NCBI GenBank assembly: GCA_023205875.1
Contig: CP060759.1
Coordinates: 992,001-1,056,000 of the forward strand
Source: Chloropicon primus
Lineage: Eukaryota
Direction of reading: 5' to 3'
DNA length: 64,000 nt
In this document: positions 26,711 to 33,566 of the stretch, in pieces
Position numbering within the stretch: the stretch's first letter is position 1
How the letters are laid out: every line of letters begins with the position of its first letter
Translations under genes and position numbers: made by a program
The notes under the pieces: model-generated
What the model was told of the DNA's origin: nothing
What the model saw: the letters and a program-made list of their open reading frames with translations, nothing else
Database searches by the model: none

Positions 26711-26855
26711 CTCGCAATAGCTCAGCTGGAAGAGCATGGGACTGTAATGTGATTTCTACTCTCAGTATCTGAGAGAATCTGAACATGTTAATCGAGCCTG
26801 TCACAAGGTTCAAGCCGACATCCTGGGGTCGGGTGTTCGATTCACCCTTGCGAGA
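26711..26855 (+). tRNA. tRNA-Tyr(GTA) with 72-nt intron at 37/38 (26748-26819)
   Basis: Acceptor stem CTCGCAA/TTGCGAG with discriminator A (C1-G72, A73, eukaryotic Tyr identity). D arm GCTC-AGCTGGAA-GAGC. Anticodon GTA at 26744-26746. T arm GGGTG-TTCGATT-CACCC. C32 can pair with the antepenultimate intron G. Confidence 0.93.
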
Positions 26856-26967
26856 TGCAAACCGAGGAGGCGGCGAAACAACAGTCGCCTCTCCTCTTGC
26901 TCCGCGAGAGAAGGATTCGATGAGAGACGTTAATTGTACACAAGGATCACAACGAGATCGTAACGGC

Positions 26968-27008
26968 GGAGGACGGCGAGGAGGACGGCGAGGAGGACGG
27001 CGAGGAGG
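26968..27008. repeat. 12-bp tandem repeat (ggaggacggcga x3.4)
   Basis: Read directly from the sequence. Confidence 0.9.
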
Positions 27009-27402
27009 TGTGTGACCTGGCGGGAGCTGGAGAGAGAAAGAGAGCCGCCGTAACGCCAGAGCCGCGAACGAGGCGGCCGACGAGTGGGGACGAGAAGACC
27101 ACGACCAGAGAGAAAGCGATGAGTTACCTCCTGGAATACTTCGGCCGCTGGTTGCCGACGAAGAAGAGGAGACTGACGAATACTGGGACGTCATGTGAAG
27201 AAGGGGCTGGTGGCGCCACCCCGGCCGCGGTTCTCCAGGTGGGTGGCGCCCAAGGATGGCGGGTGGCACCCAAGGTTTGTGGTGCCCAATGTCTCTGTCT
27301 TCACCCACTTGCAGGGCAGCGGGCAGCCGTGCGGCAAGCCTGGACACCAACGCTTGCACAGTGGCCATGGCGACCTCCGCGGGACCTCATAGGGAGCGGG
27401 AG

Positions 27403-28284
27403 ATGGCCGCCATCGAGGAGAACGCGGATCCGACGACGCTTCTCAATGCGGATGGACTTCTTGCCTCTCTTCGCTTCGCAGACGAATTAGCTGGCGCGCC
27501 GCCCACCCTTGCACGCGAGGGTACACGGGCGGAGCGAACTCGCGAGCCTGAGGAGCTGACCCTGGTCCGCGTGGTCCGAGGCCGTGGCGGAGTCCACCTG
27601 GAGCGCGTTGCGGGCTTGAAAGAACTGACCCACTGCATCGTCTTCCTCCGCGAGTCCCTTGCGCGGGAGGGGCTTGGGAACAAGCTCGCTGGTCAGGCGG
27701 CCACGATCTCAAGCGCGTTGCTCGGCAAAGATCTTCCTAAACAGGTGAAAGCATTTCGTTTCGTGGAGCTTGGGACCGCCAGCCGCTCGCGATGCCTCAA
27801 GGACCGCAAAGTTCTTACGAAAGCTCTTGCCCTTGCGAAGGAGAAGGGCGAGCCTTGCGCGCTTCTTGTAGCTGCCTTGTCGCGATTGTCGAGACGGTCA
27901 CAAGCTGAAGAGGACCTCGACTACCTTGCTGAGCGCGCAGGGCAGGCCTCTATACTGGCGTGTATCCCGACGTCCCATGCAGCAGCTTTGATTGGGGAGG
28001 AAAAGAAAGAGGAGCTCAAAAAGTACATGAGCAAGGCTGCAAGCACCTCGGACGGGCACGCCGTGTACTCGGCGTCGCACTGCATGCTCAAGTCCGGCGC
28101 CACCCGTTGTTCTGTAGCATCGGGCCAACACACTTCTGAGGAACTTTGTCTCCTCGTCGAACACGTCGAGCACGTCCTGAGGCACAAGCTGGAGAATCTG
28201 GAGAAGCCGGGGGAGCAGAAGCACGGGAAACCCCTTCTCCTCGTATCTTCTTGGAAAGCGCTTTGTGGAGCAACGGGCGAGTGA
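27403..28284 (+). CDS. Serine recombinase (resolvase/IS607 TnpA-like) catalytic-domain protein, ORF1 (alternative ATGs at 27256 and 27367)
   Basis: CIVFLRES...LAGQ (YxRxS...Q motif, Ser at 27655-57), ELGTAS....DRKVLTKALALA (DxGxS...R motif) and ALLVAALSRLSR (V..LDRLsR motif), in the correct order and spacing. Confidence 0.7.
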   Translation: MAAIEENADPTTLLNADGLLASLRFADELAGAPPTLAREGTRAERTREPEELTLVRVVRGRGGVHLERVAGLKELTHCIVFLRESLAREGLGNKLAGQAATISSALLGKDLPKQVKAFRFVELGTASRSRCLKDRKVLTKALALAKEKGEPCALLVAALSRLSRRSQAEEDLDYLAERAGQASILACIPTSHAAALIGEEKKEELKKYMSKAASTSDGHAVYSASHCMLKSGATRCSVASGQHTSEELCLLVEHVEHVLRHKLENLEKPGEQKHGKPLLLVSSWKALCGATGE

Positions 28285-29551
28285 TCTCGTCCGCGCATGG
28301 AAGAACCAACCCACAGTTCGTGTGCTCGTCGCTGCTTGTTCCATCACGGAAGCGAACTACGACATCATTCTTCGCGAGGAGCACATGGAGTTCCTGGAGA
28401 CCTACAGGCAATACTGCCACGTTCACTCCGTGAGGGACGAGTTGTTTGAAAACCGTGATGGACACGGCTTGGATGAAGACGCATTGAGCAGAGTCTTTGA
28501 GTACTTTGCGGATGCACTAAAGGGAGAACATGTCGATGTCGTGTTTGAGAATGAATGTTTCCCAGAAACCGCGATCTCTGTGACTCAAAAAGATTTCTTC
28601 GAATGCCCCTGCGCTGGTAAATGCTCTCGCAAGTCGTCCAGGACAACAGGCACCGCGAACACCGCTCCAGCACATACTCGATGCATTTGTGGTTGTGACA
28701 TGTGCAAGAGGAGTCGTCCTTGCATTCTGGTGGACAGCGACGCCGAGGACGGCGGGGAGAGGGAGAGAGAGCTTCGCAAATTCGATGCCGCCGCATGTCC
28801 CTGTGGACCTTGCAGCAGCAGTCCCTTGAGCACTGGCACGAAAAGGAAGACACAGGCCAAGACCAACACGAAAGGGAAGAGGAAGACCAAAGAAAGGAAG
28901 CTGATGGAGGAGCTTCCTCAAGTTCCTACTACAGACGGTATGCAAGCCCTGCGCTGCATCTGCTGTGATGCTTTTCGTCGCCCTGAGTGCCCCTTGGTCA
29001 AAACAGGAGCTCTGACCCCGGTTCCTGGGGGGGAACGTGATCGAGGTGGGCACAATCCCACTTGCCTCCTCTCGAACTGGTGCTGGTACTGCCACCGCTT
29101 GATCACGAAAAGCGAATTCAGCCAGTGGTGCTCGTTCGGTTGCTTCTTGAAAGCCACGAAGTTCGTGGACAAGAAGGAGCTTTGGGACATGAGCAAGGAA
29201 ATTGGCATGACACAACTGAAGAACACGATTGGCTTCTGGTTTTGTGTTCCGTGTACAAAGAAACCTGAGTCCGAGAAAACCTTGATCCCAATCAAGAGTT
29301 CATATGGCTTCAAGTGCTGGAGATGCAAATATGGACATGGCAAAATCGGCAAGGGGTGCGAGGAGAACGCAGGAGGAGGCGGCGTGAACATGCAGCGCGC
29401 AAACATGCAGCGCGCAAAAATTGGTGAGAACAGAAAGGCCAAAGAGGTAGTGACCCCGCACCCAATGCTCGTCGACATGATGCTTGAGAACAATATGGAG
29501 GTGGATACGGAGCAAGCGAAACCAGGGGAGGAGTCGGAGGAGGAGATCTAA
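28265..29551 (+). CDS. Cys-rich (multiple CxC/CxxC) protein, ORF2; +1 frame relative to ORF1 and probably its continuation
   Basis: 428-codon ORF whose frame is open from 28181. First ATG lies ~40 codons in. Motifs CPCAGKC, CICGCDMC, CPCGPC, CICC, CWYC, WCSFGC, CVPC and CWRC, plus a Lys-rich NLS-like stretch. Confidence 0.65.
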   Translation: MEQRASDLVRAWKNQPTVRVLVAACSITEANYDIILREEHMEFLETYRQYCHVHSVRDELFENRDGHGLDEDALSRVFEYFADALKGEHVDVVFENECFPETAISVTQKDFFECPCAGKCSRKSSRTTGTANTAPAHTRCICGCDMCKRSRPCILVDSDAEDGGERERELRKFDAAACPCGPCSSSPLSTGTKRKTQAKTNTKGKRKTKERKLMEELPQVPTTDGMQALRCICCDAFRRPECPLVKTGALTPVPGGERDRGGHNPTCLLSNWCWYCHRLITKSEFSQWCSFGCFLKATKFVDKKELWDMSKEIGMTQLKNTIGFWFCVPCTKKPESEKTLIPIKSSYGFKCWRCKYGHGKIGKGCEENAGGGGVNMQRANMQRAKIGENRKAKEVVTPHPMLVDMMLENNMEVDTEQAKPGEESEEEI

Positions 29552-29555
29552 AACT

Positions 29556-29669
29556 CAGTGGGCTCGAAGCCAGGACCCGCCTTGCCGTTGGGACCCAATT
29601 GAATGCATGGTATGGGCGGAGAGCAGGAAAGACCAGCGCGTCATCGAATGGATCGATGCCAATTCTTAA
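29556..29669 (+). pseudogene. C-terminal remnant (or terminal exon) of an algal/giant-virus-type ankyrin-repeat gene
   Basis: Reads QWARSQDPPCRWDPIECMVWAESRKDQRVIEWIDANS*, resembling the W(A/L)RSQDPPCPW repeat-unit motif of that family (recalled, not searched). Confidence 0.6.
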
Positions 29670-29941
29670 CCAAGACAATGTCTCACGACGAACCTGTCAT
29701 CGACCTCGCTTCTGATTCCCCCTCCTCCTCCTCCTCCTCCTCCTCTCATCATTCTCATCATTCACACAGAGACCGAGAGACAGAGAGAGAGAAACCGAGA
29801 GACACAATGAATGTGTGATCCAACCCAAACCCAACCCAAACCCAAACCTCTTCCCTTCCTGATCCCCCTCTTCTCCCTCTCTTCTCTCCCTGGCCCTTCC
29901 TTCGCCGTTACAACAAAATCCCCCCCTCATAAAACCAAATC

Positions 29942-31300
29942 ATGACTCTGGCGGCCATGGCCGCTGCAGCCACACACACACACACACACTCCTTCAAGGC
30001 ACAATCACTTTCACTCCTCATCCGTAACAGGAGGAGGATGTCGTCCTCCGCGGCGTCGTCGTCGCCCACCCCCACCCCCACCCCCACCTCCTCCTTCACG
30101 GAGCGCCTCCGGGTCGTCGACCCCCACCCCCAGGAGAGGCCACCCCTCCACACCGTCACCGTCGCCGTCAAGGACATCATGGACATGGAGGGCTGCACGA
30201 CGGGGTTTGGGCACCCGCTCTGGCGTCTTACGCACGAGCCCGCCACCACCAACGCCGCCGTGGTCCAAACACTCCTCGGCTGCGGGGCGTCCATCGTGGG
30301 GAGGACGCACATGGACGAACTGGCGTGGTCCCTCTTTGGGGAGAACCACCACTTTGGCACGCCCCCGAACCCGGCCGCTCCCGGCGCCGTCCCGGGGGGC
30401 TCGTCCTCGGGATCGGCCTCCGCCGTGGCCGCGGGGGAGGCGGACGTCGGCATCGGGACGGACACGGGCGGGTCCGTGCGCGTCCCCGCCTCGTGGTGCG
30501 GTTTGTTTGGCATCCGTCCCAGCCACGGGAGGGTCTCCTTGCAGGGCGCGAGGGCCCTGGCCCCGAGCTTCGACACGTGCGGCTGGCTCACCCGGGACGC
30601 GGGGCTGCTGAGGCGGGTGGGCCGGGAGCTCCTGGACCCGAGGGCGGCTGCGGGGCTGCCGAGGCGGGAGTGGAGGTGGCTCGTGGCCGCGGACGCCTTT
30701 GACCTCGCGGACGCGGAGACCGCGGAGCTCATCTTCGAAGCGGTCTCCTCGAGGAGGGAGGACCTCGCCAGGGTCTTCTCGCCGTCCAAGGCCCCCCCCC
30801 AGGAGGTGGCCCTGGACCACCTGGGCGGGGGCTTCGACAAGTGGTTCGAGACGTTCAGGGTCCTGCAGTCTCGCGAGGTTTGGGAGACCTTGGGGCCCTG
30901 GGTGGAGGAGCACGACCCCGAGTTCGGGCCAGGCGTCAAGGAGAGGTTCGAGTACGCCCGAGTCGTGCCGGACTCCGACGTGGCGGCGGGGAACAGGATG
31001 AGGGAGGGGGCCCGGCGGGCGCTGACCGAGCTGCTTGGGGAGGACGGCGTCGTCATGCTCCCCACGACTCCGGGGCCTCCTCCTCGTCGCGTATCGAGCC
31101 CCGAGGTGGTGACGGACCTCAGGGCTCGCTTGCTTCGGCTGACCAGTATCGCGGGCCTCACGGGGCTGCCCCAGGTGAGCGTTCCGGTCGGACGGGTAAG
31201 AGGCAAAGGGCCCGTCGGCCTGAGCCTGCTGGGGCCGCCGGACTCGGACGAGGACCTCCTGGAGCTGGCGGAGAGTTTGGCGGAAATCCTTCTTCCATGA
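29942..31300 (+). CDS. Amidase-signature family protein (AMI1/Toc64 amidase-like); alternative start 30038
   Basis: VAVKDI, PGGSSSGSASAVAAG and IGTDTGGSVRVPAS (Lys-Ser-Ser triad). Confidence 0.92.
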   Translation: MTLAAMAAAATHTHTHSFKAQSLSLLIRNRRRMSSSAASSSPTPTPTPTSSFTERLRVVDPHPQERPPLHTVTVAVKDIMDMEGCTTGFGHPLWRLTHEPATTNAAVVQTLLGCGASIVGRTHMDELAWSLFGENHHFGTPPNPAAPGAVPGGSSSGSASAVAAGEADVGIGTDTGGSVRVPASWCGLFGIRPSHGRVSLQGARALAPSFDTCGWLTRDAGLLRRVGRELLDPRAAAGLPRREWRWLVAADAFDLADAETAELIFEAVSSRREDLARVFSPSKAPPQEVALDHLGGGFDKWFETFRVLQSREVWETLGPWVEEHDPEFGPGVKERFEYARVVPDSDVAAGNRMREGARRALTELLGEDGVVMLPTTPGPPPRRVSSPEVVTDLRARLLRLTSIAGLTGLPQVSVPVGRVRGKGPVGLSLLGPPDSDEDLLELAESLAEILLP

Positions 31301-31607: not shown

Positions 31608-33566
31608 CTACTTTGTGACCCCGATCGCCTCAAGCCTGGAGATCTGCTGCCCGGTGAGCTTCCCCTTCCTCCACAGGGCCCTCTGGTTCGTGAGCCAGGC
31701 GGCGAGGTGGTTGTGGAGGTGGTTGCTGCTCTCCCTCGGAACGAGGACGTGGCCGTTCTCCTCCTGGTACGCCGTGAGCTGGTTGAACATCCTGGACCAC
31801 GCCCCTCTCCTCTCCCAGGTGAAACCCACCATGTCGAGCAGGCTCTTGTACGCGAAGGGCAGGTCGTGCCTGTTCTGCCTCATGTTGACCACCCACGGGC
31901 TCAGCCTGTGGTCCTTCGGCACGTCGCAGTGGCCGCTCACGGCCCTGAACTTGAGCAGGCCCTCAAAGTTCATCTGCCACTCCAGGCCCTCCCACTGCAT
32001 CCCGAGTCGGTCCAGCCTCTCCTTCTTCCCCGGGTCCGTGATCATCCCCCCCTCCTGCAGCACGAGCTGGATCTTCATCCACCTCGCCAGCTGCCTCACC
32101 TGCTGGGGCTCGAGCTTCACCTGCAACCCCTCGCCGCCGCCCTCGGGGACCATCAAGTCGTCGTAGAGCCGCACCAGAAGGGCCAGCATGGAGTCCACGG
32201 CGTAGTGCTGCTGAAGGGCCTCGAGGACGCCGCAAACCTCCCGAAACTTCAGAGAGTAAGGGTCCAGGTCGAAGCAGATCTCCCTCAGCATCGTCTGCCT
32301 CTCCGGCCAGATGGCCTTGGTGTACCACAAGACCTGCTGCCTCTGCATCCAGAACTTCCTGCCCTTGAGGTCCCCCGCGTAGTCCGGGCTCGAGGGCCTC
32401 AGGGTGCTCACCTTGAGCGTCCCCTTCTCCGCCCTGATCGCCCTGTAGTCCTGGTAAAACCGCAGCCACCTCGAGATGTACTTGGCGTTCCAATCAAAGT
32501 TGATGCTCTCCAACCTCTCCACGTGGCAGGGCGCCAGCCTCCCCGCGGCGTAGGCGATCCTCTGCAGCTCCGTCCACTCGTGGAGGGAGACCTCCCTCTT
32601 GCACCCGTTCACCGGGCGAGGGTGGGAGTGGCCCGTCTCCAGGATGTGGTCCAGGAGCTTGTCGAACATCCCCTCCCACTCGGAGGTGATCCCCAGGCCA
32701 AAGTCGAACCCGATGAGCTCGAGCAGCTTGACCTGGTCCTGGGACAGCTTCCCCTCCGCCTTGTGCCTCCTCACCCTGTGCGTCCACCGCTTGAGGTCCC
32801 CGGAGGACTCCGACGAGGGCCGGAAGTCGCCGTGCTTGAACCAGTGAGCCGCCAGTTGCACCGCCCTCTTGTCCCAGCTGTCCGCCCCCTCCACGTTGCA
32901 CAGGATCAGCAGGGGGACCTTGGCCACCAGACTGCCGATCCCCGCCCTCCCCTTGGGGATCCCCAGGTTCTCCAGGAAGGGGACCAGCGTGCGCACGTTC
33001 TTCAGGGCCTTGGACCTCCGCCTTCGGTCCACGAGGATGTGCCCGCCCTCCGTGACCCTCCAGGCCACCGCGACCGAGATCACGTCGTTCACCTCCTCCT
33101 CCGTCAGCTCCATGCCGAGAAGGGCCTCCTCGAGCTGGATGTACTTCGAGTTCCCGGACGTCCGGCCCCTCCTGTTGTGCCCGCCGCACTTGGAGCTCTC
33201 GGCCGACGCCACGGCTTCCTCGGAAGCCGTCTTCGCCTTGGACGTCTGGACCGGCCGGTGCTCCACGGAGAGGAAGGGGAACACCGCCTCCCCCCAGCCC
33301 TCGCCGTGCCTCTCCAGGCGGAAGATGAGCTCGGTCTCCTCCTCCTCCTTCTTTGCAACCCCCCTTGCCGTGGACGAAGACGTGCTCGCCACGTCGCCGT
33401 CGTCGTCCTCGTCGTCAAACACCAGCGAGACCCCGGGCGCCGCCTCGGGCGCCCTGCCTCGGCGGACCCGCCCCCCTCCCCCGCGACGGGGCCGGAGCAA
33501 CGCGCTCGCGAACGCCACCCCCCTCGCCGGCGACGCCCTCCCTCCTCGCGCACCCACCCTCGTCAT
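31608..33566 (-). CDS. Organelle-targeted protein with tandem helicase-associated (HA) domains, no helicase
   Basis: Repeated W..MF..L......GH..(V)P......L..W...QR......L......L..(I/L)GF.W units and an Arg-rich transit peptide. Start at ATG 33566. Confidence 0.78.
   Translation of the reverse strand: MTRVGARGGRASPARGVAFASALLRPRRGGGGRVRRGRAPEAAPGVSLVFDDEDDDGDVASTSSSTARGVAKKEEEETELIFRLERHGEGWGEAVFPFLSVEHRPVQTSKAKTASEEAVASAESSKCGGHNRRGRTSGNSKYIQLEEALLGMELTEEEVNDVISVAVAWRVTEGGHILVDRRRRSKALKNVRTLVPFLENLGIPKGRAGIGSLVAKVPLLILCNVEGADSWDKRAVQLAAHWFKHGDFRPSSESSGDLKRWTHRVRRHKAEGKLSQDQVKLLELIGFDFGLGITSEWEGMFDKLLDHILETGHSHPRPVNGCKREVSLHEWTELQRIAYAAGRLAPCHVERLESINFDWNAKYISRWLRFYQDYRAIRAEKGTLKVSTLRPSSPDYAGDLKGRKFWMQRQQVLWYTKAIWPERQTMLREICFDLDPYSLKFREVCGVLEALQQHYAVDSMLALLVRLYDDLMVPEGGGEGLQVKLEPQQVRQLARWMKIQLVLQEGGMITDPGKKERLDRLGMQWEGLEWQMNFEGLLKFRAVSGHCDVPKDHRLSPWVVNMRQNRHDLPFAYKSLLDMVGFTWERRGAWSRMFNQLTAYQEENGHVLVPRESSNHLHNHLAAWLTNQRALWRKGKLTGQQISRLEAIGVTK

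Follow-up and report, generated by a model that had tools for sequence, protein, structure and literature searches.

A dispersed, multi-copy element of the green alga Chloropicon primus that probably mobilises itself with a tandem serine recombinase

What is a serine-recombinase (SR) gene doing directly behind a tRNA gene in the genome of Chloropicon primus, and did its own product bring it there? The locus lies in a 64,000-nt stretch of contig CP060759.1 (assembly GCA_023205875.1, positions 992,001 to 1,056,000, forward strand), which we refer to as the window and by whose numbering all coordinates are given. The tRNA gene is followed by two overlapping frames, 27199–28284 and 28181–29551, which hold open reading frames (ORFs) ORF1 and ORF2, between carotenoid-oxygenase and amidase genes, and the annotation (A3770_06p45390 to 45420) lists a carotenoid dioxygenase, two hypothetical proteins and an amidase. 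A preliminary description had proposed a mobile or integrative element with an SR, and this has held: the sequence belongs to a family that is multi-copy, dispersed, decaying and, at annotation level, different between strains. The family has a sharp left end and a single long frame encoding two SR domains with R-x-S and RxxR residues, and the copy in the window carries a deletion. The element is real and multi-copy, and it is probably a self-mobilising SR element of new architecture.

The two frames in the window are the remains of one gene. The three ordered SR motifs described for ORF1 are present, with the serine codon of R-x-S at 27655–27657. Against the Pfam Resolvase profile (PF00239), ORF1 alone reached 17.9 bits (E 0.0035), under the cut-off of 23.3; the clear match is that of intact paralogues, at 40.6–41.4 bits over two stretches. 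Longer paralogues spanning both ORF1 and ORF2 were recovered in a protein search with ORF2. Relative to P0007 (923 amino acids), which came from a further search, 146 residues are missing between the end of the ORF1 match and the start of the ORF2 match, and a contig of sequencing run X5 carries 440 extra bases here (record 302 to 740). The junction of this 440-nt deletion, at 28243–28245 (+), shows a 3-nt microhomology; the deletion removed the second SR domain (SR2) and caused the frameshift between ORF1 and ORF2. Of the recombinase gene and overlapping Cys-rich gene first described, the Cys-rich character stands, whereas the separate partner arose only through the deletion within a single gene that has two SR domains. 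An intron between ORF1 and ORF2 was rejected, since at this point other copies have additional coding sequence and the joints listed include none of this kind.

The front of the gene is disturbed as well. The native start of the family protein (MSYLLEYF...; 27119–27490, +) is out of frame in the window copy through one additional base at 27285 and 17 missing bases at 27334. All four sequencing runs compared lacked the one base and carried the 17, so that the start at 27119 comes into frame. When the indels listed are applied to the window length, the sum is exactly 950 codons, the length of paralogue P0018, and the intact gene therefore needs no intron. What remains of the first half, ORF1, is a residual frame (27367–28284, +) that holds the first SR domain (SR1), matches paralogue P0012 in alignment and ends in 12 codons of out-of-frame read-through; all 6 of its differences, among those listed, are amino-acid changes. 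Internally deleted as it is, the window copy is defective and likely non-autonomous.

Intact copies (QDZ23153 is an example) encode a single protein of about 950 amino acids (923–950), comprising SR1, SR2 and then a Cys-rich tail. SR1, with helix E, corresponds to P0007 residues 147–300 and to 27619–28080 (+), as placed by alignment and VIA-align rows, and it retains R157, S159, R235 and R238, with Ser for the usual Asp before R235. SR2 presents R359, S361, D448, R449 and R452. The R-x-S and (D)RxxR residues have established catalytic roles in SRs, and Ser in place of Asp in the DRxxR motif is found in some large SRs. Resolvase clusters made up 28 of the 30 protein-atlas matches for residues 125–530, and UniRef labels four intact proteins as resolvase-domain proteins; the domain is thus already on record, the element as such apparently not. 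Between SR1 and SR2 there is only remote similarity (26% over 46 amino acids), and their pairing is therefore old. The C-terminal remainder in the window, ORF2 (28244–29551, +), aligns with P0007 residues 502–923 and contains 25 Cys from residue 606 on, including several CxxC pairs. It has no Pfam family match, and the Cys-rich tail no usable protein-atlas match; its Cys pattern makes zinc binding likely, and a DNA-binding role may go with it.

Copies of this gene are spread through the genome. P0007 falls in a cluster of 11 members, with further paralogues on many chromosomes. In the available part of supplementary file S1 of PMC12301720, the family corresponds to the C. primus-specific orthogroups OG0000040/45, with 9 loci in strain CCMP1205 and 11 in RCC138; these are annotation-level counts in which neighbouring tags were taken as one locus. 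Eight loci are common to both strains, and four are listed in one strain, namely those on chr3, chr14 and chr16 of RCC138 (3/11) and 02p16300 of CCMP1205 (1/9). In DNA run X1, the contig depths add up to about 160 over the left flank and 783–2052 over the ORFs, which is not a true copy number and is in line with about ten copies. A domesticated single-copy gene, the outcome the preliminary description had set against a mobile element, does not fit a family that is multi-copy and dispersed. The form with the 440-nt deletion, told by its read-through ending, occurs at three loci, one on chr6 and two on chr5 (P0012; P0014; P0015/P0001), and so spread when it was already broken, whether mobilised in trans or copied through conversion. 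Pairwise difference between 8 long copies is 0.002 in SR2, 0.032 in SR1 and 0.04–0.09 in the N-terminus and the Cys-rich parts.

Gene models at some loci include host sequence. Element fragments are fused to ferrochelatase and to a flavin adenine dinucleotide (FAD) oxidoreductase in P0010 and P0011, and a CCR4-NOT-labelled model, CCMP1205_17p80050, belongs to the family orthogroup; these three are truncated copies directly beside host genes. Polyketide-synthase-type genes adjoin two family loci (03g27060 and 09p56720).

The left end of the element is closely defined. X1 depth is 169 up to 26846 and 2874 from 26866, and loose ends show other copies joining different flanks at the left junction (26858–26866): at 26858 in two X1 contigs, at 26861 in run X5, and at 26862 and 26864 in run X4 (X4 and X5 are RNA by guess only). 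From the depth step and the joining flanks, the element begins 2–10 nt behind the tRNA. Just inside lies an imperfect inverted repeat (26864–26896) that can form a hairpin and is a possible recombinase binding site; the fold of 26856–26960 is weak (z −1.8, with 10 of 200 shuffles as good). The 5′ subterminal region that follows (26917–27118, +) is built of short modules varying in number between copies, with a 12-nt unit present three times, joints skipping 105–156 nt and module-like loose ends. A T-loop-like motif occurs inside this end at 26917–26930, and in most other copies position 26920 is a G, so that the motif reads GGTTCGA.

At the other side, the 3′ region (29552–29940) contains the right end between 29815 and about 29940. 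X1 depth falls from 1454 (29675–29841) to 583 (29842–30008) and 32 (30009–30175), the peptide encoded by 29744–29815 forms the end of the chr17 gene model P0017, which places the right end beyond 29815 and so past the 29669 first given, and the amidase gene starts at 29942. The whole element measures about 3.5 kb. Its 3′ untranslated part includes, at 29556–29594 (+), a 39-nt stretch of a high-copy tandem repeat found in host coding sequence, presumably of ankyrin type, which reads QWARSQDPPCRWD. Depth in the bin 29508–29674 is 32,557, and one joint goes back 39 nt. The piece stands in frame directly behind the ORF2 stop and may be captured host sequence; the same unit appears in row 128 of Suppl. 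Data 8 of PMC6731263, in the part of that file available. Two further candidates were rejected here: TTAA at 26931 and 29666 as a target duplication, both being inside sequence common to copies, and a structured guide RNA in the 3′ region (z +0.58; no Rfam family besides the tRNA).

The gene in front of the element is a host tRNA-Tyr(GTA) gene at 26711–26855 (+), which has an intron of about 73 nt after position 37 and lies outside the element at single-copy depth (169 in X1). It was recognised by Rfam (RF00005, 45.6 bits), from whose alignment the anticodon was read, and was not detected by ARAGORN. The tRNA-Tyr reported near the recombinase is thus real, but the spacing of about 0.5 kb given for it is not, because the element starts directly behind the tRNA at about 26858–26866. 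The first run of four T downstream of the tRNA occurs only at 28972, and insertion of the element may have separated the gene from its terminator.

Does the element favour such sites? Three left flanks can be read by eye: the full tRNA of the window, a perfect B box in X5, and a weak anticodon-like 11-mer in X4. The loose X5 flank ends in a perfect GGTTCGANNCC B box, for which about 2e-4 is expected per 30-nt flank, the pattern having been noticed post hoc, and the X4 flank starts with an 11-mer that we take, weakly, to resemble the anticodon arm of tRNA-Phe. Both flanks could be cuts through tRNA-like sequences; the two X1 left flanks gave a mixed consensus only, all these flanks being among the joints listed. 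In the RCC138 locus tags, 1 of 14 tags between the two chr15 copies is non-protein (0.09 expected), as are 4 of 72 up to the chr16 copy (0.46 expected), the other 9 intervals being unremarkable. These counts are a hint of RNA-gene proximity at most, since RNA genes cluster and tag 16g76810 is a protein gene. The genome has only 46 tRNA genes in 17.5 Mb. A preference for tRNA genes or RNA polymerase III flanks is possible, and we think it less likely than not.

We favour the reading that this is a dispersed element moved by its own tandem SR protein, with the intact form as the transposase, and consider it reasonably likely. In this scheme, the two SR domains of one chain would act as a pre-joined dimer, so that one chain would supply both serines for each DNA end, and the Cys-rich tail would bind the element ends. 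Two chains would form a four-subunit synapse, cut both strands, rotate and rejoin; the element would leave as a circle and insert at a short shared core with no target duplication, and deleted copies would be mobilised in trans. Every catalytic step here is our inference. In the available text of PMC6188088, SRs function as tetramers, every subunit cutting a single strand, and IS607 forms a circle on excision and makes no target duplication (PMC6188088; PMC13565253, likewise in part).

Could the SR gene instead be cargo of a non-autonomous element moved by another transposase, as Fanzor is cargo? A candidate mover would be the cut-and-paste system that carries Fanzor2: C. primus Fanzor2 elements have their own terminal inverted repeats (TIRs), along with target-site duplications (TSDs), according to the available part of PMC10711439. 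Consistent with this, a gene labelled 'IS605 transposase' (Fanzor) is the next tag at 2 of the 11 RCC138 loci, on chr15 in both strains (RCC138_15g75930/CCMP1205_15p75680) and on chr16 of RCC138 (RCC138_16g76810), where by our estimate about 0.09 would be expected at random, and the right end of the element is only bracketed. However, comparison of the left 85 nt with the right region gave no significant inverted or direct match (73–221 of 500 shuffles did as well), conservation is highest in the SR cores, and the intact ORF occupies about 2.85 of the 3.5 kb. We regard movement as cargo as improbable.

The same Fanzor neighbours on chr15 and chr16 would also suit a heavily derived IS607EU element that duplicated its TnpA, lost the N-terminal helix-turn-helix (HTH) and kept the Fanzor partner in some copies only. 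IS607 likewise has subterminal repeats and, close to its end, an imperfect inverted repeat, and the CC at 26862–26863, just 5′ of the left end, is GG on the lower strand, as at IS607 ends (judged by eye). Against this origin, a search of NCBIfam at E ≤ 1 gave no IS607 profile, only XisF (E 0.59), and Pfam searches of P0007 and P0018 at E ≤ 1 gave Resolvase only, with no HTH, Recombinase or zinc-ribbon domain. No IS605-labelled neighbour is present at the window copy or at the long copies 02p16300 and 09p56710 (the orphan 02p12000 leaves one neighbour unassigned), and Fanzor genes cluster in the C. primus genome anyway (13g69820/30/910, 16g76750/810). The window contains no Fanzor ORF and the protein has no RuvC-family match, so the earlier suggestion that the architecture may not be IS607-like, with neither RuvC nor HTH, agrees with the Pfam and NCBIfam results. 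Descent from IS607EU strikes us as unlikely. No DDE transposase family was matched by Pfam in the window proteins or in P0007 and P0018.

A third alternative is a gene gained horizontally and possibly domesticated, whose copies spread through dispersed duplication and gene conversion with no part played by its own activity. It would explain why most loci are common to both strains and why runs guessed to be RNA cover the element, and it has a parallel in the six-gene IS607-type SR family with little polymorphism in Saccharomyces kluyveri (PMC2715888, available text). Against it stand the sharp left end that copies with unrelated flanks have in common, the number of broken copies, the loci that appear in the list of a single strain, and the absence of a match in the 13 other green algae tabulated for the available CCMP1205 rows; we hold it to be unlikely.

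Several observations nevertheless weigh against an element moved by its own recombinase. The strain differences come from gene models, not DNA. The two strains, isolated in different oceans, have 8 loci in common, so that any movement is slow or old. Gene conversion could account both for the near identity of SR2 and for the way the deletion has spread. Among the 10 heterozygous indels over 400 bp of CCMP1205 in the available part of Suppl. Data 8 of PMC6731263, where sequences were compared to 400 letters, none starts with an element end (0/10), and no empty site, excision circle or activity was seen. Because the right end is placed only to a range, TIRs and TSDs are possible, and the Fanzor tags next to two loci count here as well. 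SR1 is without the Asp of the DRxxR motif, and SR2, by eye, without an obvious Arg in motif B. The predicted structure is poor (mean predicted local distance difference test, pLDDT, 37.5) and the model is without SR2; Foldseek returned no match to it at E ≤ 0.001, and SR domains took 8 of the 15 top VIA-align rows over residues 143–291 (Z 4.2–4.8), tied with unrelated folds. Apart from these points, a single-sequence fold of P0005 reached a pLDDT of 32.9, complex prediction for SR1 with SR2, made without an alignment, scored 0.01, 0.33 and 0.06 against a mark of 0.34, and PDB sequence searches gave no SR match.

The self-mobilising tandem SR element that we favour shares features with several known systems and coincides with none of those compared here. 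As in IS607 and IS607EU (PMC6188088, available text), an SR is found in a small dispersed eukaryotic element with no clear TIR (in ours, as far as its ends are placed), with subterminal repeats and with an imperfect inverted repeat near one end. In contrast, the TnpA of IS607 has a single SR domain preceded by a DNA-binding domain at the N-terminus, and TnpB/Fanzor is encoded by a second ORF, whereas the C. primus element has two SR domains in a chain of about 950 amino acids, its putative DNA-binding part at the C-terminus, and, in the window copy, no second ORF. The order of a catalytic domain first and a long C-terminal part with Cys motifs recalls large serine recombinases such as TnpX/TndX and phage integrases, and SR1 was weakly aligned to domains of TnpX, Bxb1, TP901-1 and Sin by VIA-align; a PHROG search gave only a weak integrase row, on SR2 (E 0.034). 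Unlike these enzymes, the C. primus protein has no Recombinase or zinc-ribbon Pfam domain, has two catalytic domains and is found in a eukaryotic nuclear host. Small resolvases and invertases (PF00239) are its closest profile and language-model matches, but they are single-domain proteins of 170–200 amino acids, and the C. primus protein has roughly five times their length, carries the domain twice and lacks an HTH match.

Dada is likewise a DNA element, one that may share with ours a liking for tRNA genes, but its transposase is of the DDE type, and it integrates within the RNA gene, producing TSDs of 6–7 bp (PMC3706591, available part), whereas in C. primus the element has an SR and leaves the tRNA intact. 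Crypton and Starship elements, so far as the sources available cover them, are recombinase-driven eukaryotic DNA elements without TIRs too, yet with tyrosine instead of serine chemistry and an unrelated fold. According to a 2026 review, among the eukaryotic DNA transposons known, IS607EU alone has a serine recombinase (PMC13565253, available part). A search of the open-access literature, with Repbase and subscription papers outside it, found no description of two SR domains fused in one natural chain or of the C. primus family, and 'resolvase' and 'recombinase' have 0 occurrences in the main texts of PMC12301720 and PMC6731263.

Among 1.84 billion representatives, 9 proteins passed E 0.001. 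Two of them carry C. primus names, and P0023 falls into a cluster with one of this pair. P0002 (56% over the front part of SR1) and P0024 (54%, C-terminus) look, from these alignments, like related elements in another genome. P0025 (on a 599-kb contig) and P0027 match SR1, the linker and the first SR2 motif at about 31% identity and keep the R-x-S motifs of both domains as well as the RxxR of SR1, and P0026 and P0034-36 have the second half of SR1 in common. A metagenome protein, P0028, has two copies of a CWxCH...CSxxC-like motif matching the Cys-rich tail, and no SR domain was seen in it. Exact-pattern scans gave no match for the protein in viral contigs, metagenome contigs or prokaryotic genomes, nor for the left-end DNA pattern in viral contigs, and such scans do not show absence; no plasmid match was found.

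The surroundings of the locus differ from it in composition. GC content at synonymous third codon positions is 0.66 for ORF1 and 0.61 for ORF2, against 0.89, 0.88 and 0.95 in three flanking genes, which confirms the remark that the block uses more A/T-ending codons than its neighbours (0.66/0.61 against 0.88–0.95). Elsewhere in the window, one gene (31608–33566, −) contains four helicase-associated (HA, PF03457) domains. Rows 49 and 94 of the available part of Suppl. Data 8 of PMC6731263 record two heterozygous insertions of about 2.7 kb, on chr3 and chr6, with nearly the same starting sequence; they represent another, recently mobile element family, by eye unrelated to the SR element.

If the SR protein does move its own element, C. 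primus would hold a second group of eukaryotic SR transposons, with a different architecture and no Fanzor. With a fused SR pair, a single protein could act at an asymmetric site, which bears on how SR tetramers assemble. It is doubtful, yet worth stating, that the family belongs to a new, IS607-independent order of eukaryotic DNA transposons, with a single-chain tandem SR and zinc-finger tail, scarless excision, preferential insertion at the edges of tRNA and other RNA polymerase III genes, mobilisation of deleted derivatives in trans and distant relatives in other marine organisms. Were that order real, it would provide a natural asymmetric serine integrase working in a eukaryotic nucleus. 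If the preference for tRNA flanks holds, the protein is also a candidate safe-harbour integrase for algae.

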